Of a DNA stretch of 10,830 nucleotides, positions 1,758 through 10,830 are shown piece after piece. Position numbers and translations under genes: made by a program. The number at the start of each line of letters is the position of its first letter. Within the stretch, counting starts at the first letter, position 1. Origin of the DNA: Candidatus Babeliales bacterium (GTDB lineage: Bacteria > Babelota > Babeliae > Babelales > Vermiphilaceae); assembly GCA_044451405.1 (NCBI GenBank), contig JBIOKB010000029.1:1-10830 (forward strand), given 5' to 3'. The notes under the pieces are model-generated. The model searched no databases, was not told the DNA's origin, and was given only the letters and a program-made list of their open reading frames with translations.

Positions 1758-2750
1758 GTGGATATGTTGTTACGTTTTGCTTACAGTGCGGCTCTGCTTG
1801 TTACCATTCCCGTACTTATAACCGTTATCTGGTACCGCCTTATGTATTATAAAGGGGTGGTATACCGGTATCCACTGACTACTACGTTAGCCAAGCAGAG
1901 CAATAACAGACGGCATATACATACCTACATTCTTTTTGCATTACGCGCACTAAGCTTAACCATCTTGGCACTGTTGGTTGGTAAACCCCAGCTGGTTGAT
2001 TCTCGTTCACATGTTATGCTTGAAGGCATTGATATTATTGTCGTGCTTGATGTTTCTGGCAGTATGGGCATGCCGCACCATGCGGGTGATGAGCGCTCGC
2101 GTATTGATGTAGCAAAAGAAGAAGCGATCCGTTTTATTGATAAGCGTACCAATGATGCTATTGGGCTGGTGATATTCGGCAGCGATGCGGTATCCCGCTG
2201 TCCATTAACCGCTGATAAAGTGCTGTTAAAATCCATGATTCATGATATTGAAATTGGCGTGATCAATCCTGAAGGCACTGTGGTTGCAACGTCCATTATT
2301 GCAGCTGCTAATCGGTTAAAGCAATCACATGCAGCAAGCAAAATTATGATTTTGTTAACTGATGGTGAGCCCAGTGAGCATGATGCTGATCCAGAAGTTG
2401 CTATCACCATCGCTCAACAACTTGGTATTAAAATTTACACCGTTGGTATTGGTGATGATCAGGAAGTGCTTGTGCAGCATCCACTGTATGGCAGAATACC
2501 GATGCGCACTACCCTGAACAAAGGTTTGTTGACGACTATTGCACATCGCACCGGCGGCCAATTTTTTGAAGCAAAAAATGCACAGGATATGCGCACCATT
2601 TATGATACCATTGATCGCTTAGAGCGAGCGCCCATTGATACGCCAATCTTTAGTAATTATTATGATATTTTTATGCCATTTATATGGGCATTGTTACTGT
2701 TATTACTTGGTGAGTTGTTAGCGCGATCATTAATCTGGCTGAGTTTGTGA
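1758..2750 (+). CDS. batA: BatA-like VWA-domain membrane protein
   Basis: MIDAS DVSGS, 'IGLVIFG...CPLTAD', 'ILLTDGE', 'IKIYTVGIG', 'TGGQFFEA'; N-terminal TM pair and C-terminal TM. GTG start after AGAGGA. Confidence 0.85.
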   Translation: MDMLLRFAYSAALLVTIPVLITVIWYRLMYYKGVVYRYPLTTTLAKQSNNRRHIHTYILFALRALSLTILALLVGKPQLVDSRSHVMLEGIDIIVVLDVSGSMGMPHHAGDERSRIDVAKEEAIRFIDKRTNDAIGLVIFGSDAVSRCPLTADKVLLKSMIHDIEIGVINPEGTVVATSIIAAANRLKQSHAASKIMILLTDGEPSEHDADPEVAITIAQQLGIKIYTVGIGDDQEVLVQHPLYGRIPMRTTLNKGLLTTIAHRTGGQFFEAKNAQDMRTIYDTIDRLERAPIDTPIFSNYYDIFMPFIWALLLLLLGELLARSLIWLSL

Positions 2751-2757
2751 GTGAGTT

Positions 2758-3735
2758 ATGTGGGGAATTACGTGGGCATGTACGGCACATCTTATCTATA
2801 GTCCATTGTTACTTGGCGTACTGGGGCTGTTGCTGTATCGGTTACATCGGGTAAAACAGATAGTTGCGTTCTTGGCCGATGGCTTACAGGGCTTTTCTTG
2901 GATAAAGCAGTGGCTCAAGTTGCTACTCTTTTTTTTAGCCTTCTGTGCGATTTTTTGTGCGTTTTTACGCCCGCAATGGGGAAAGAAAGAAGAACGCATT
3001 GCACAACAGGGGCGTGATTTATTTATTGCGCTTGATATCTCCAAATCGATGCTTGCGCACGATGTTAAACCAAACAGATTGAAGTGTGCACAACAAAAAA
3101 TTAAACAGTTAGTACAGCAATTATCCTGTGAGCGCGTTGGCCTCATTCTCTTTTCTGGATCAGCGTTTGTGCAATGTCCGTTAACCTCTGATTATGCAGC
3201 GTTTTATATGTTTTTAGATCAGCTTGATGTAGAAACTATTTCTTCGGGCGCTACTGCACTTGATCAGGCAATTATGTATGCATTGCGTGCGTTTAATGTG
3301 GGGCCTGAGCGAAAAAACAAACTATTGGTTATTGTTACGGATGGTGAAGATTTTTCACAGAATTTAACGGAGGTAGCACATCAAGCGGCTCAGGAACGTC
3401 TGCACATATTTACGCTTGGTGTAGGAACCAAAGAAGGTGCGCCAATTCCATTGGTTGATATGCATGGCAAATCGCAAGGACATCAAAAAGATAGTAAAGG
3501 GGCGGTGGTAATTTCGCGTCTTAACGAGCAGATGCTGTCAAAGCTTGCTCATGACTGTGGCGGTACGTATATCACCATGAGCAACGATGATAGTGATGTA
3601 CGCAAACTTCTTAAGGAAGTTGCATCGTTTGAAAAAGAGACATTGGAAGATAAAAAAGTTACGCAGTATCATGATCAGTACCCATATTTTGTGGCCGTAG
3701 CGTTTTTCTTATTAGCACTAGAGTGGATCCTATGA
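2758..3735 (+). CDS. batB: BatB-like VWA-domain membrane protein
   Basis: 'RPQWG', MIDAS DISKSM followed by 'DVKPNRL', 'CPLTSDY', 'TDGED', 'GVGTKEGAPIP', 'ISRLNE'. Second VWA gene, directly after batA. Confidence 0.85.
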   Translation: MWGITWACTAHLIYSPLLLGVLGLLLYRLHRVKQIVAFLADGLQGFSWIKQWLKLLLFFLAFCAIFCAFLRPQWGKKEERIAQQGRDLFIALDISKSMLAHDVKPNRLKCAQQKIKQLVQQLSCERVGLILFSGSAFVQCPLTSDYAAFYMFLDQLDVETISSGATALDQAIMYALRAFNVGPERKNKLLVIVTDGEDFSQNLTEVAHQAAQERLHIFTLGVGTKEGAPIPLVDMHGKSQGHQKDSKGAVVISRLNEQMLSKLAHDCGGTYITMSNDDSDVRKLLKEVASFEKETLEDKKVTQYHDQYPYFVAVAFFLLALEWIL

Positions 3736-4598
3736 TGCGCATACTTATCATAAGCTGTATATGCATGCCGATGCATGCATGGTTTGAACATGGCCGTGCC
3801 GTAAATGCTGCTCATAGCGGTGATTGGCAGCGTGCACATACGCTGTTAACAACAGAGCTGGTGAATCATCCGCATGATCCATCAGTGGTGTACGATGCTG
3901 GTGTTGCTGCATACAAAACAGGTGATTATGAGCAAGCGCGCGCCTATTTTGATCATGTAATTTCTTTGCCACAGGCATCAGATCAGCTTAAAGAACGTGC
4001 TTATTTTAATGCGGGAAACACGCAGGTTGCACTAAAACAATTTGAGCAAGCCATTAAAAAGTATGAGCAGGCACTGTCTATCGATCCCCATGATGAGCAT
4101 GCGCGACACAACTTAGAGATAGTGAAAAAAATGCTCGAGCAACAAAAACAAGAACAAGACAAGCAAGAAAAAGAGAATGAAGAAAAAGAGAACAAAGAGC
4201 AGCAAGACGAGTCGTCAGAAGAATCTGAGAGCGAATCAGGAAGTGATGAGCAGCAGGGTGAAAGCAAGCAAGAAAAAAATAAAGAGCAAGCTGATACGAA
4301 AAATAGTGACGCGCAGAAAAAAGAACGTGATCAAAAAAAGCAAGAAGCTCAAAAACAGCAAACTGACAAAAAACAGAAAGAAGAACAGCAACAACAATCA
4401 GTAGCACAAGAAAAAGATAAGCGCGATAAAAAAGAGAGTGAAAAAGCAGCTGCGCAGCAGTCTGCCGTAAAACTTGATAAACAATTGCTCCGCTTACTCG
4501 AGCAACAAGAAAAGCATGATGCAGATATTAACAAGCAGATGATTAAAGCAACCGTTGGTAGTCATAAGGGTGATGCACATGATAAGCATTGTTGGTAA
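3732..4598 (+). CDS. batC: BatC-like TPR protein with Q/K/E-rich low-complexity tail
   Basis: Signal-like N-terminus, TPRs (YDAGVAAYKTGDYEQA; AYFNAGNTQVALKQFEQAIKKYEQALSIDP..ARHNLE), long Q/K/E tail and terminal Trp, typical of BatC. ATG at 3732 overlaps the batB stop (ATGA). Confidence 0.8.
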   Translation: MMRILIISCICMPMHAWFEHGRAVNAAHSGDWQRAHTLLTTELVNHPHDPSVVYDAGVAAYKTGDYEQARAYFDHVISLPQASDQLKERAYFNAGNTQVALKQFEQAIKKYEQALSIDPHDEHARHNLEIVKKMLEQQKQEQDKQEKENEEKENKEQQDESSEESESESGSDEQQGESKQEKNKEQADTKNSDAQKKERDQKKQEAQKQQTDKKQKEEQQQQSVAQEKDKRDKKESEKAAAQQSAVKLDKQLLRLLEQQEKHDADINKQMIKATVGSHKGDAHDKHCW

Positions 4599-6360
4599 AG
4601 CATGGTTCATCGGGAGCGTGCTGTTACTCAGCTCCTGCATGTATGCTACGGTAACACTCAAAGTTAAAGATCTTAATGGTATTGTGTTAAAAGAAGTAGC
4701 TGCAGGCTATCCGTGCACAATTGAATTAACCATTGATGATGCACAACGCCGTATGGAAAATCCGGAAATTAAGGGCCTCGATCAGTTTCATCTTGAAGGC
4801 CGTGAAACGAGCATGCAGATGATTAATGGTAAAACAACAGTTACTTATGGATTTCGTGCACGCTGCAACAAACCAGGATCATATACGATTGGGCCAGCAA
4901 AACTTTCTATAGAAGGTACAGAATATACATCAAATGTAGTGCCACTTACCGTTGTTGCTGCGCCCACGGCCAATGCACACACTGATGATACCACGGTATT
5001 TGCGCGCTTGCGCTGCACTAAAAAACAGGTGGTAGTTGGTGAAAAAGTTGGTGTGAGTATTCGTTTTTATTACACAAATCATGATTATTTGCTGCGTGAT
5101 GTTGGTAATCCCCCAGAAAAAGGCTATACGCGCAAAGAGGTACAAGGGCCATTTTCAGGCACCGAGGTGATTGATGGTGTGATGTATCATTATGTTGAAT
5201 GGACGTGGGATATGTATCCAACAAAACCAGGTGTACTCACTATACCTGCCTACAGCTTTGATTATGATACGCCTAAAACGGAAGGGCAGGACCATGTGTT
5301 TGCAGGATTCTCTCTCTTTTTTAATCGGCAACGCTATGATCGTCATCGAGTGTATTCAAATTCATGTGAATTAGAGGTTGATCACATACCAGAGGTAGAT
5401 AATGAAGCAGTGCAAGGAGTAGGTCACTGCACTGCATTTACCGCGCGTATAACACCTGCGCACGTTACACAAGGCGATGGCATGGTGCTTACGCTCGAGT
5501 TAACGGGCGATGCTGATTTTGATGCGGTTACTTTAAACTCATTGAAGCTGCCTGATGTATTTAAATGGTATGATTCACAAACATTACCAGTACAGGATGC
5601 TAAAGGTGGACAGCGGAAAAAATCATGGGAATATATTGTACAAGGGTTAAAACCGGGTACATTTGAAATTCCTGCACAACGTTTTACCTATTTTGATACA
5701 AAGAAACGTACGGTAGTTACGCTCGCTACATCACCACAGTCTGTTACGATTACATCTGCTTTGCAGGAAACCACGAACACTAAAAAATTAGCTGACGCCG
5801 AGTTGCCCCATCAAGAGCAGCAGCGAGCAGAAAACGAGCCTGTGGCTTCTCTTGCACAAGCTGTCGATATTGTCGATCCCTCAGGCCTCAGGCCCATACA
5901 TGAATCAGGGCAATGGTACGCACACCAAGAGCGATCAGTGCCATTGTGGTTGTATGTACTCTTAATGGCGTTGCCGATAAGTTTTGTAATCGCACGTTGG
6001 TTTTTAAATAATTACAGCGGATGGTTGCACGCAGTGGCACGTAAACGGTATCTCTTTAAACAAGCGCGTGCACAACTAGCACGGGCTGAACTTGTTGGTA
6101 ATGGTGCTGTAGTGTATCCACTCTTTATTTCTATCTTGAGTAGTTGTTTGTCAATTCCTGAATCCATGGTTACCGATGAGTTTATTGAGCAAGCATTTAA
6201 GAATGCAGGGTTAAACGATGCACAGTGTAATGCCTGGAAACAGTTTTTTGTACAAGCAGCAGCGTATGCATTTTATGCAGAAAATAATAAGCAACGAGCA
6301 CCAGATGATTTTTTTCAACAAGCTGCTGCATGGCTTGATGTGTGTGAGAAACAGTTATGA
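4579..6360 (+). CDS. batD: BatD family protein (beta-rich extracytoplasmic domains plus C-terminal TM)
   Basis: Signal peptide, BatD-like motifs (SMQMING, PGSYTIGPA, PTKPGVLTIP, PGTFEIPAQRFTYFD) and a TM near residue 460; position after batC. Start 4579 follows AAGGGTG (4573 is an alternative). Confidence 0.8.
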   Translation: MISIVGKAWFIGSVLLLSSCMYATVTLKVKDLNGIVLKEVAAGYPCTIELTIDDAQRRMENPEIKGLDQFHLEGRETSMQMINGKTTVTYGFRARCNKPGSYTIGPAKLSIEGTEYTSNVVPLTVVAAPTANAHTDDTTVFARLRCTKKQVVVGEKVGVSIRFYYTNHDYLLRDVGNPPEKGYTRKEVQGPFSGTEVIDGVMYHYVEWTWDMYPTKPGVLTIPAYSFDYDTPKTEGQDHVFAGFSLFFNRQRYDRHRVYSNSCELEVDHIPEVDNEAVQGVGHCTAFTARITPAHVTQGDGMVLTLELTGDADFDAVTLNSLKLPDVFKWYDSQTLPVQDAKGGQRKKSWEYIVQGLKPGTFEIPAQRFTYFDTKKRTVVTLATSPQSVTITSALQETTNTKKLADAELPHQEQQRAENEPVASLAQAVDIVDPSGLRPIHESGQWYAHQERSVPLWLYVLLMALPISFVIARWFLNNYSGWLHAVARKRYLFKQARAQLARAELVGNGAVVYPLFISILSSCLSIPESMVTDEFIEQAFKNAGLNDAQCNAWKQFFVQAAAYAFYAENNKQRAPDDFFQQAAAWLDVCEKQL

Positions 6361-9244: not shown

Positions 9245-9745
9245 ATGAACCAATTAACCCGTTTATTTCGCAGTCTTAGTGGTTTAGCACTTGTAGGTTT
9301 GCTTGCAAGTTGTAGCTGCGGTTCAAAAGTTGAACAAAAACGCAGCGGTTTAGTGGTTATCAATGTTCTTGATAAAGAGGTGTATGACGATTGTCATATC
9401 AAGGGTTCAGTGAATGTGCCATTTACTAAGTTGAGCGAATATGCCCAAGGCCTTGATCCTGAAACAGCAGAAGTTGTTGTATATTGTAGTAATTATATGT
9501 GCTCGACCAGTGGACATGCATGCAAGCAGCTTATGAAGATGGGCTTTAAGCATGTGTGGGCATATGAGGGAGGTACTGCTGAGTGGTACCAAATGGGACT
9601 TCCGGTTGAAGGGCCATGTAAAAACTCATATTTAATACAAAAAATTATGCCCCCACGGCATGAGGGCGAGCAGGCCATAGCGATTATTACGACACAGGAA
9701 CTGGCAGAAAAAATGCATGTGAGCGCGGCAAAGCCCAGCCATTAA
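9245..9745 (+). CDS. Rhodanese-like domain lipoprotein
   Basis: Lipobox-like LLASC after a hydrophobic stretch. Rhodanese motifs 'Y..CHIKGSVNVP', 'VVVYC' (active-site loop), 'MGFKHVWAYEGG..EW' and 'GLPVE'. Confidence 0.85.
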   Translation: MNQLTRLFRSLSGLALVGLLASCSCGSKVEQKRSGLVVINVLDKEVYDDCHIKGSVNVPFTKLSEYAQGLDPETAEVVVYCSNYMCSTSGHACKQLMKMGFKHVWAYEGGTAEWYQMGLPVEGPCKNSYLIQKIMPPRHEGEQAIAIITTQELAEKMHVSAAKPSH

Positions 9746-9765
9746 TAGTATATAGAGGGGCGCCA

Positions 9766-9823
9766 GCCTGACGAAGTTTAATACTTCCTTGGGTTTGACT
9801 TCGAAGTAAAAACGTAGACAGGC
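9766..9823 (+). repeat. Half copy (hairpin 2 only) of the tRNA-associated structured repeat
   Basis: GCCTG-A-CGAAG-TTT..TACTTC...GAAGTA..AAA-CGTAG-A-CAGGC. Same architecture as 9994-10052 and 10265-10320. Confidence 0.6.
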
Positions 9824-9894
9824 GGCATAGCCAAGTGGTAAGGCATGGGTCTGCAAAACCTTGATCCCCGGTTCGAATCCGGGTGCCGCCTCCA
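9821..9894 (+). tRNA. tRNA-Cys (GCA)
   Basis: Acceptor stem GGCGGCA/TGCCGCC, D arm GCC-AAGTGGTAA-GGC, anticodon loop CTGCAAA, T arm CCCGG-TTCGAAT-CCGGG, discriminator T, encoded CCA. Confidence 0.97.
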
Positions 9895-10052
9895 TACTTT
9901 GCCTTTTCCACGATGCTTAACAAGAGCTGTGAAGGCTACGTATGGCAGGCCAAACTACGCCTGATGATGATTGACATAAAAAAGGCAAAGTATGCCCTTC
10001 ATAGCCTACAGCTTGCTCGTGTAATTCTTCGGTAGTAGAGGCGAAGTAGGGC
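9892..10052 (+). repeat. tRNA-3'-anchored structured repeat, copy 1
   Basis: 15-bp perfect inverted repeat 9893-9907/9980-9994. Conserved blocks GCCT...GGCTACG-NN-TGGC..GCCA...AGGC..AG-NN-TGCCC.TCATAGC...GCGA.G..GGGC, shared with 10170-10320. Confidence 0.75.
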
Positions 10053-10086
10053 AAAAAAGTAAGTAGTTAGTGGTTGAAATTAATGT

Positions 10087-10172
10087 GCCGAGGTGGCGGA
10101 ATGGTAGACGCAAAGGACTTAAAATCCTTCGGGCTTTTGCCTGTGCCGGTTCGAGTCCGGCTCTCGGCACCA
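10087..10172 (+). tRNA. tRNA-Leu (TAA)
   Basis: Acceptor stem GCCGAGG/TCTCGGC, anticodon arm AAGGA-CTTAAAA-TCCTT, long variable arm GGGC-TTTT-GCCT, T arm GCCGG-TTCGAGT-CCGGC, ending ACCA. Confidence 0.97.
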
Positions 10173-10320
10173 ATCTACGCCTGCATCGGGAAAGACTTCG
10201 ATGTTAAATTGGGCTACGATTGGCTACGCCAGTCTCTTTAACGGAATGACTAAAGGCGTAGATTGCCCCTCATAGCTCAGCTAATCTTCGTAGTTATTCT
10301 CTCGCAAGCGACGAGTGGGC
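10170..10320 (+). repeat. tRNA-3'-anchored structured repeat, copy 2 (leader of the GIY-YIG gene)
   Basis: 12-bp perfect inverted repeat 10171-10182/10254-10265, with the same conserved blocks and order as copy 1. Confidence 0.75.
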
Positions 10321-10344
10321 AGTCTGAGTGGCAAAGATATTGAT

Positions 10345-10593
10345 ATGTTCTATGTATATTTTCTTAAATCTCTTAAAAATTCTAAACAAGCATATATTGG
10401 CTATTCTACTAATGTAGAAGATCGCCTTGAAACACATAATTCCGGTAGATCGATTCATACAGCAAAATACAGACCCTGGGAATTAATCTACTATATTGCT
10501 TTTAAAAATTCTGGTGAAGCGAGGGAATTTGAAACATATTTAAAAACACCTTCAGGAAAAGCGTTTGCTCTCCGGCGATTATTACCAAAATAA
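10345..10593 (+). CDS. Stand-alone GIY-YIG nuclease (SLX1/UPF0213-like, 82 aa)
   Basis: YVY...YIG motif, conserved Arg and His (RLETHN), 'T.KYRPWELIY', and metal-binding Glu (AREFETYLK). ATG 10345 is preferred over GTG 10315, which lies inside the repeat hairpin. Confidence 0.9.
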   Translation: MFYVYFLKSLKNSKQAYIGYSTNVEDRLETHNSGRSIHTAKYRPWELIYYIAFKNSGEAREFETYLKTPSGKAFALRRLLPK

Positions 10594-10604
10594 ATTTATC
10601 AATC

Positions 10605-10662
10605 CTGTTCGTCCTGAACCTGACAAAGTAGTGTGCCAAAAGCACACTAGGGTATCGAACGG
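10605..10662. repeat. Nested palindrome (REP-like element or terminator-like hairpin) downstream of GIY-YIG
   Basis: Outer stem CTGTTCG/CGAACGG, inner perfect 8-bp stem TAGTGTGC-CAAAA-GCACACTA. Confidence 0.55.
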
Positions 10663-10690
10663 CATCTATTTATTAAAAAAAAGATACCAT

Positions 10691-10830
10691 ATGTGGCCAA
10701 GTTTTGCCTTATTATTACTCATCAACTCCAATCATGAAATCTTATTATTACGTCGCATAAATACCCCTTTTTGCAACCACTGTTACTCATTACCTGGTGG
10801 TAAAATAGAAGTTGGGGAGACTGCCACTCA
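10691..10830 (+). CDS. Nudix hydrolase, 5' part (runs off the window)
   Basis: Own translation: MWPSFALLLLINSNHEILLLRRINTPFCNHCYSLPGGKIEVGETAT. 'ILLLRR' and 'LPGGKIEVGET' are the start of a Nudix box (GX5E). Confidence 0.85.
   Translation, partial: MWPSFALLLLINSNHEILLLRRINTPFCNHCYSLPGGKIEVGETAT

Follow-up and report, generated by a model that had tools for sequence, protein, structure and literature searches.

Palindromic trailers after tRNA-Cys and tRNA-Leu(taa) in a Candidatus Babeliales genome: probable copies of a dispersed repeat docked on the encoded CCA end

In a genome of Candidatus Babeliales (assembly GCA_044451405.1), the genes for tRNA-Cys and tRNA-Leu(taa) are each followed by a palindromic trailer in which the encoded CCA end can pair with alternative downstream partners, and the question raised by this locus is whether such a trailer is a regulatory device or has another origin. 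The window analyzed, which is the whole stretch of 10,830 nt at positions 1–10,830 of contig JBIOKB010000029.1, was the subject of an earlier note, in which three-way covariation between the CCA-proximal arm and two partner sites was described and taken to reflect either a conformational switch coupled to tRNA 3′ processing or a footprint of templated copying. Our analysis suggests, with a probability of roughly 0.6, that the trailers are not a locus-specific switch and that each consists of two copies, arranged tail to tail, of a palindromic repeat of about 60 nt dispersed throughout the lineage.

In both trailers, the 5′ arm starting in the CCA has a near and a far partner. The near helix, helix A, pairs CCATAC (9892–9897) with GTATGG (9940–9945) in copy 1, after tRNA-Cys, and CCAATC (10170–10175) with GATTGG (10218–10223) in copy 2, after tRNA-Leu(taa), with 6 bp in each case. 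The far helix, helix B, is a perfect inverted repeat of 15 nt in copy 1 (9893–9907/9980–9994, 72 nt between) and of 12 nt in copy 2 (10171–10182/10254–10265, 71 nt between). The helix positions in the earlier note were confirmed, together with the two letter changes on which it had built: the TA/AT switch is compensated in both the near and the far arm, and the CTTTG/CTACG switch is compensated in the far arm. When 5000 dinucleotide shuffles were made of each trailer, the longest CCA-anchored inverted repeats reached 9 and 11 nt, below the real 15 and 12 nt. Folding of the trailers up to the far arm gave z values of −4.3 and −4.7, and 0 of 200 shuffles were equally stable.

Twenty seed copies, of which 16 came from this genome, 4 came from relatives, and 13 were docked on tRNA genes, were aligned, and the alignment was turned into a covariance model, R1. 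This model recognized five family copies inside the window, and the features of the locus are as follows.

9754–9822, − strand: E0, family copy (R1 39.9 bits; E 1.2e-8 in the window, E 1.1e-6 genome-wide)
9821–9894, + strand: tRNA-Cys(gca) (ARAGORN; Rfam tRNA 63.8 bits)
9892–9956, + strand: E1a, family copy (R1 50 bits, E 4.6e-11; repeats D5, D8, and I6)
9980–9994, + strand: far arm (arm B) of copy 1 (inverted repeat I1, 15/15, complement of 9893–9907)
9983–10051, − strand: E2a, inverted family copy (R1 15.4 bits, E 0.0086, filters off)
10087–10172, + strand: tRNA-Leu(taa) (ARAGORN; Rfam tRNA 59.3 bits)
10170–10235, + strand: E1b, family copy (R1 66.1 bits, E 6.6e-15)
10254–10265, + strand: far arm (arm B) of copy 2 (inverted repeat I7, 12/12, complement of 10171–10182), directly adjoining E2b
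10260–10318, − strand: E2b, inverted family copy (R1 19.9 bits, E 0.00072)
10345–10593, + strand: gene for an 82-aa GIY-YIG nuclease (UPF0213/SLX1-like; Pfam GIY-YIG, E 9.9e-17), directly 3′ of the composite that ends in E2b

The encoded CCA of tRNA-Cys (9892–9894) forms the first three bases of E1a, and that of tRNA-Leu(taa) (10170–10172) the first three bases of E1b. E1a consists, in order, of the 5′ arm CCATAC, an inner hairpin, the partner GTATGG, and a tail repeating the arm motif at 9950–9963. E1b shares 86% identity over 159 nt with the copy after tRNA-Ser(gga) on contig C20 and contains a local hairpin, TTGGC/GCCAG (10220–10232), which competes with helix A for the same TGG. The far arm of copy 1, the longest among the 97 elements tested, directly adjoins the inverted E2a and is taken as the 3′ tail of E2a in the R1 alignment; relatives of the E2a hairpin occur singly elsewhere in the genome.

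The consensus of the 20-copy alignment reads CCAGTC-TWC-GCY, a variable inner hairpin, RGC-TAC-GCCTGG, and then CT-nn-CGCCAGTCT. More generally, the unit is about 60 nt long and is made up of a 5′ arm CC(A/C)NNC-TWC-GCY, an inner hairpin, a complementary arm RGC-TWC-GNN(T/G)GG, and a short tail repeating the 5′ arm, helix A being formed by CC(A/C)NNC with GNN(T/G)GG some 45 nt downstream. RNAalifold, run unaided on a MAFFT alignment, recovered the outer helix as well as the basal part of the inner hairpin, with 85.8% of the structure paired and a covariation score matched by 0 of 500 shuffles, and GCC/GGC alternated with GCT/AGC at 10:10 in the 20-copy alignment. Among the relatives (48 matches at 34 loci), in an alignment fitted to the model and hence biased towards its pairing, the outer helix was 88.5% paired, the covariation score was again matched by 0 of 500 shuffles, and the fourth pair was G:C in 37, U:A in 7, A:U in 3, and C:G in 1.

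Partners were also read position by position, in 96 copies; the remaining one of the 97 lacked the anchor motif and was omitted. In this reading, the third pair was A:T in 43 of the 46 tRNA-docked copies, and C:G (23), A:T (15), or A:G (8) in the 50 non-docked copies; because it is A:T in docked copies and often C:G elsewhere, the partner base in helix A follows A76 of the tRNA. The fourth pair was Watson-Crick in all 46 docked copies (G:C 36, A:T 5, T:A 5), and the fifth was paired in only 15 of the 46, mostly reading T:C or T:T. Pairs 3 and 4 were kept in 90 of 92 cells in docked copies versus 74 of 100 in the others. No G:T pair was found at positions 1–5 of helix A, i.e., in 480 cells covering five of its six positions. 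The fourth and fifth pairs change in concert, and compensated variants beyond TA and AT included TT/AA, AC/GT, GC/GC, GG/CC, and TG/CA, the last occurring as CCATGC/GCATGG in another genus; with partners read by position across copies, the TA and AT of the window are thus two among several compensated variants. Pairing of the CCA-proximal arm is upheld by compensatory changes in these 96 copies from many genera, as had been claimed from the two window copies. The local hairpin CTGGC/GCCAG is conserved, being 89.7% paired; covariation was looked for in it and none was found.

The host genome (1.02 Mb in 89 contigs, 95.7% complete, 34 tRNAs by ARAGORN) yielded 49 matches to R1 at E ≤ 0.01 and 74 at E ≤ 1. 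Eleven of the 49 have the first C of a tRNA CCA as their first base, and the other 38 lie elsewhere, in both orientations. Inspection by eye of the 200 nt after every tRNA showed that 18 of the 34 carry at least the 5′ arm, comprising 11 full copies, 2 interrupted copies, 2 minimal copies (38 nt), and 3 arms only. Among the 31 nearest genomes, 21 had a match (15 of 18 from other genera of the same taxonomic family and 5 of 12 from other families), and class-wide a match at E ≤ 1e-4 was found in 65 of 141 genomes and 47 of 91 genera; the 141 genomes sampled from the class all belong to one order and measure 0.8–1.7 Mb. In the relatives, 35 of the 48 matches begin at a tRNA CCA. For three genomes a full tRNA table was available, and there a tRNA adjoins 17 of 25, 14 of 17, and 7 of 9 of the matches listed. 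The CCA of transfer-messenger RNA (tmRNA) is used by the element in two genomes (locus L095 of G001, 963–1399; locus L111 of G032, 1123–1558). In the host genome, no element follows the tmRNA, 5S, or RNase P RNA, and the tmRNA ends in an ordinary hairpin and T run. This tmRNA (ARAGORN, C18:15179–15548) has an unusual tag ending in ...NLAYC, and two ARAGORN tRNAs at C3:34504–34818 are doubtful, namely a tRNA-Ile(aat) and a tRNA whose anticodon has four bases.

By way of the neighboring rhodanese gene, three related loci (47–48% identity) were found in metagenome-assembled genomes. All three keep the order rhodanese, tRNA-Cys, tRNA-Leu(taa), with an element after both tRNAs and differing inner hairpins. 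E0, on the other side of tRNA-Cys, abuts the 5′ end of this gene with its first two bases overlapping, its CC being the complement of the first GG of the tRNA; the position of E0 is empty of a family copy in all three syntenic relatives.

The family has spread and turned over at the DNA level. Relative to crude open reading frames (ORFs; at least 100 codons), the 49 copies fell as 12, 11, 10, and 7 in the four orientation classes, with 9 unassigned and no preference, and 34 lay outside and 15 inside the ORFs. Orthologous tRNA-Cys and tRNA-Leu sites in other genera hold different subfamilies, and a Tyr-Gly-Thr cluster has three elements in one genus and none in the host genome. The tRNA-Ser(tga) locus exists in two versions, on contigs C27 (11107–11439) and C28 (1–569), whose flanks share 97% and 95% identity; they differ only between CCAGTC and the right flank, where one holds a 66-nt minimal element and the other about 300 nt with a GIY-YIG gene, and the pair stems either from different strains in the bin or from a duplication. 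In the 46 docked copies, the two strands form hairpins of equal stability (mean difference −0.08 kcal/mol; sense favored in 18, antisense in 27); neither the folding energy nor G-U use gave in these copies the strand asymmetry that would be a sign of RNA selection. Some copies are nested or interrupted. At C4:28572–28654 and C2:9726–9803, a small GC hairpin (GGTGCGC...GCGCAC) stands right after CCAGTCT and is apparently a third small repeat landing in the element.

Helix B was scored as a perfect complement of the 5′ arm that starts at the CA of CCA and lies within 110 nt downstream. A perfect far arm of at least 10 nt was present in 8 of the 97 elements, versus 168 of 9312 (1.8%) cross-pairings of arms with foreign trailers, and directly adjoined an inverted family copy in every case; the composite therefore consists of unit (+), spacer, far arm, and unit (−). 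The window holds two such tail-to-tail pairs, and most copies in the genome are single. With an unbiased pattern, 18 far-arm-like sites were compared, and at 8 of them the variant dinucleotide agreed with that of the local 5′ arm, versus 16% by chance; among the non-consensus matches, TA was seen in three genera and GC and AT in one genus each. The remaining 10 sites had no match, an example being the orthologous tRNA-Leu(taa) of a sister genus, where a GT arm stands opposite a TA far arm. Because 8 of the 18 match and 10 fail, the three-way covariation is real and recurrent but not universal; across many homologs, then, the covariation claimed by the earlier note held for helix A, and for helix B only in part.

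These observations fit the following picture. At tRNA and tmRNA genes, the encoded CCA serves as the first three stem bases, with T as the partner base instead of the G found at most other sites. Where an inverted second unit comes after the first, a further complement of the first arm is located next to the second unit, so that one 5′ arm has a helix A partner, a local competitor hairpin, and a helix B partner. The three-way covariation would be the signature of a repeat with arms kept complementary, presumably since the hairpin is the propagated unit or since the arms are copied from each other in repair or replication, and the neighboring small GIY-YIG nuclease may take part in the propagation or in the arm copying. 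The element would be expected in the tRNA precursor transcript, from which it must be cut off. A regulated switch is not needed to explain the pattern.

As regards the energies, enforcing helix A versus helix B gave −30.4 versus −32.9 kcal/mol for copy 1 and −33.8 versus −35.1 kcal/mol for copy 2. The 5′ arm does have partners that exclude one another and differ little in energy. Until the far arm has been transcribed, the minimum-energy fold is helix A, and further pairing partners appear when the inverted unit is included. Because both conformers are nearly iso-energetic in these predicted folds, helix switching is possible. Alternative pairing is inherent in this repeat, which has three or four copies of one arm, and nothing ties it to regulation. 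A switch dedicated to tRNA 3′ processing, the first interpretation in the earlier note, is not supported, in view of the 38 of 49 copies that lie away from tRNA genes in both orientations, the strand symmetry of the hairpin, the lack of G:T at five positions, and the failure of the far arm in 10 of 18 sites. Its second interpretation, a copying footprint of a repeated element, comes closer to the evidence, although the copying of arms is a step that we infer.

Several points weigh against reading the trailers as dispersed repeats. The ORF map is crude, the R1 seeds are mostly tRNA-docked (13 of 20) and make the counts lean towards docked copies, and the related genomes are not independent samples. 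No target-site duplication was visible at the junctions, and a mobilizing enzyme is not established. Both far arms in the window equal the arm of the first unit (15/15 and 12/12) and not the own arm of the inverted unit, and this better match to the first arm is not predicted by a simple dimer architecture. Docking on the CCA throughout the class, involving about half of all tRNAs in several genera, and the near-invariant unpaired CT-W-CG letters in both arms could equally mean a selected role in the precursor, and a partner base tracking A76 is also expected under RNA-level selection. The trailers might be a domesticated repeat acting as a cis-acting RNA module of tRNA precursors, in which the trailer pairs the CCA and the next three bases and the TGG strand toggles between the proximal arm, a local terminator-like hairpin, and, in composites, the far arm. 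Processing of the 3′ end, the access of RNase P, or read-through would thereby be tied to the state of the CCA end. The docking on tmRNA as well as tRNA, the better keeping of pairs 3 and 4 in docked copies, conformers within 1.3–2.5 kcal/mol with helix A as the minimum-energy fold until the far arm is made, the paired local hairpin with a T run after it in many relatives, and the apparent lack of an RNB-type exonuclease in the nearly complete genome would all suit such a module. We nevertheless consider it unlikely, though with a real chance of being right, as the many copies away from tRNAs, the absence of strand asymmetry and of G:T pairs already named, and the local hairpin without covariation argue against it. 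Moreover, no + strand terminator-like site follows either window tRNA, elements separate tRNAs that probably share a transcript, orthologous tRNAs differ in whether they carry one, and the tmRNA, 5S, and RNase P RNA of the host lack the element.

The match of the far arms to the first unit can also be regarded as a by-product of copying, imperfect inverted arms, of which this repeat has many, having been perfected by intrastrand template switching or gene conversion, with helix B unselected and functionless. The arms are perfectly Watson-Crick (15, 12, and 11 nt) with no wobble, the copy 1 match extends 3–4 nt past the family consensus arm, and the arm-like sites without a match, including the GT arm facing TA in the sister genus, also count in favor of such an origin. 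But at least five genera show the three-part match, with four different dinucleotides, which needs repeated conversion or selection, and the covariation of helix A is too general for a copying by-product; this explanation appears decidedly unlikely. A classical repetitive extragenic palindromic (REP) sequence or REP doublet forming hairpin (REPIN), mobilized by a REP-associated tyrosine transposase (RAYT; Y1, IS200/IS605-type), would also be a short dispersed palindrome found in inverted pairs, and positions 3–6 of the non-tRNA copies read CGTC, CCTC, or TGTC, as do the heads of CGTC-tagged REPs in the excerpted description of these repeats (Di Nocera et al. 2013, PMC3733652). This mobilizer was rejected and the explanation is extremely unlikely: PF01797 had 0 matches in the host genome and was absent from 26 of 31 related genomes, and its presence in the other 5 did not track the copy number of the element. 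Six Y1 loci contained two R1 matches, neither flanking the gene. In the nearest case (genome G004), the transposase belongs to a 567-bp IS200-like unit with ends unrelated to the element, which lies 237 nt outside the unit. This IS200-like unit is present in two copies (L071 1353–1919 and L076 1442–2008) that are 99.8% identical and have their own end hairpins.

Other candidates were tried and rejected. A miniature inverted-repeat transposable element was not supported, as arms of 10–15 nt occur in only 8 of the 97 elements, no duplication was seen, and an autonomous element sharing these ends was not found. As to a known Rfam family or riboswitch, only the two tRNAs reached the gathering score and nothing else notable was present in 9700–10400 at E ≤ 1. 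An intrinsic terminator was excluded for both window tRNAs, as no + strand site lies within 9600–10830; many copies in relatives have a 5-bp local hairpin followed by T-rich sequence, and the element may have a weak terminator role outside the window. No RNB-domain gene (RNase II/R) was found in the 95.7%-complete host genome, which has one RNase E/G gene and one gene of the CCA-adding/poly(A) polymerase (PolyA_pol) family.

The 82-aa ORF of the window matched an SLX1 homolog and two UPF0213 proteins in PDB sequences; it consists of the catalytic domain only, with no DNA-binding domain in the protein. All three small GIY-YIG copies of the host genome directly follow a family copy (the window gene, C62:137–352, and C28:98–301). 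In relatives, GIY-YIG genes are multi-copy, some with internal stops, and the order tRNA or tmRNA CCA, element, GIY-YIG was seen in several genera. Among the 16 best GIY-YIG loci of the relatives, 4 have a stable-RNA CCA or an element followed by GIY-YIG and 11 have no element nearby, and comparison of match coordinates added six further cases of an element followed by GIY-YIG. A literature search for GIY-YIG with YhbQ found nothing relevant. The link between the nuclease and the element is a lead, not a finding. Like free-standing GIY-YIG homing endonuclease genes, these genes are multi-copy, some with stops, with a recurrent site after the element and a presence/absence contig pair; unlike them, they encode an 82-aa catalytic domain alone, their nearest solved relatives are UPF0213 and SLX1, and 11 of 16 loci lack the element. 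It is conceivable, though quite unlikely, that the CCA-docked palindromes serve a very small mobile cassette as landing sites and are themselves derivatives of it that lack the gene. This cassette would encode only the UPF0213/SLX1-like GIY-YIG protein and would settle at tRNA and tmRNA 3′ ends through a hairpin foot pairing with the CCA and the next bases; cutting of the extruded hairpin by the nuclease, with subsequent repair by copying, would propagate the element and maintain the complementarity of its three arms. If true, a function would thereby be assigned to the widespread UPF0213 (YhbQ-type) proteins, and the retention of such trailers throughout a class of small genomes would be accounted for.

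After the GIY-YIG gene, at about 10603–10666, the window contains a second, unrelated hairpin repeat (arms GTTCGTCC.../...CGAACGG), relatives of which are located at C62:8–50 and downstream of the elements that belong to tRNA-Phe, tRNA-Met, and tRNA-Leu(gag). Farther upstream, the genes at 1758–6360 of the window resemble a Bat-type operon (two VWA proteins, a TPR protein, and BatD), downstream of which are genes for an SH3/TPR protein, an M23 peptidase, a signal peptidase, and the rhodanese.

Palindromes beside tRNA genes have been noted in other systems. Reportedly, GC-rich palindromes flank Neurospora mitochondrial tRNA genes and were discussed by Yin, Heckman, and RajBhandary in 1981 as a possible processing signal or mobile element; these are said to be organellar, unrelated in sequence, and flanking genes with no CCA in the stem. 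In IS200/IS605 elements, the left-end flank is read by an internal sequence, so that flank and guide covary; the present element differs in having no linked Y1 transposase and in pairing by an ordinary antiparallel 6-bp helix. In Escherichia coli, the 3′ external transcribed spacer of glyW-cysT-leuZ is a tRNA trailer acting as a sponge of small RNAs. It shares with the window the gene pair tRNA-Cys then tRNA-Leu(taa) and a trailer that is a possible functional RNA, but it is a single, short, locus-specific trailer versus a repeat family.

In Methanopyrus kandleri, an 18-nt palindromic motif about 10 bp downstream of approximately half of the tRNA genes has been proposed as a 3′ maturation signal. 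As far as the available part of that report describes it (PMC5217627), this motif is similar to the element in being a conserved palindrome after about half of the tRNA genes, and differs in belonging to an archaeon and one species, in lying 10 bp off the CCA, and in not being reported as a dispersed repeat. Among described repeats, the REP sequences, bacterial interspersed mosaic elements (BIMEs), and REPINs of Proteobacteria come closest, above all the CGTC-tagged REPs; they resemble the element as short dispersed hairpin repeats with many subfamilies, and they often occur in inverted pairs and are sometimes intragenic. CGTC-tagged REPs, according to the same excerpted description as above (PMC3733652), have an unpaired CGTC, TGTC, or CCTC head, a stem of 8–9 bp starting with A/T, a loop of 4–5 nt, a CCA tail, and no dedicated transposase. 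Compared by description, they share the head letters with the non-tRNA copies of the element and likewise a tail that fits CCA and the lack of a linked transposase. They are, however, 20–40 nt long versus about 60 nt with a longer, variable stem and loop; their CGTC is an unpaired head, whereas these letters are paired in the element; their pairs are mostly head-to-head and not tail-to-tail; and docking on a tRNA CCA, seen in the element, is not among the features given for them in that part of the source (PMC3733652).

Literature searches turned up no account of repeats that dock on the CCA end encoded by a tRNA gene, and such docking is unusual for palindromic repeats of this type. Small palindromic repeats are common in bacteria, and their targets and mode of spread are mostly unknown. 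The family described here takes the universal CCA of tRNA and tmRNA as its own first stem bases and adapts the partner base to it, in a class-level lineage with genomes of about 1 Mb. This raises the questions of how one repeat recognizes all tRNA 3′ ends and of whether tRNA precursors need or merely tolerate a trailer that locks the CCA. The tiny GIY-YIG nuclease linked to the element is a candidate enzyme. Even if the element is functionless, the locus shows that repeated arms can give an apparent multi-way covariation that may be mistaken for a riboswitch-like element.

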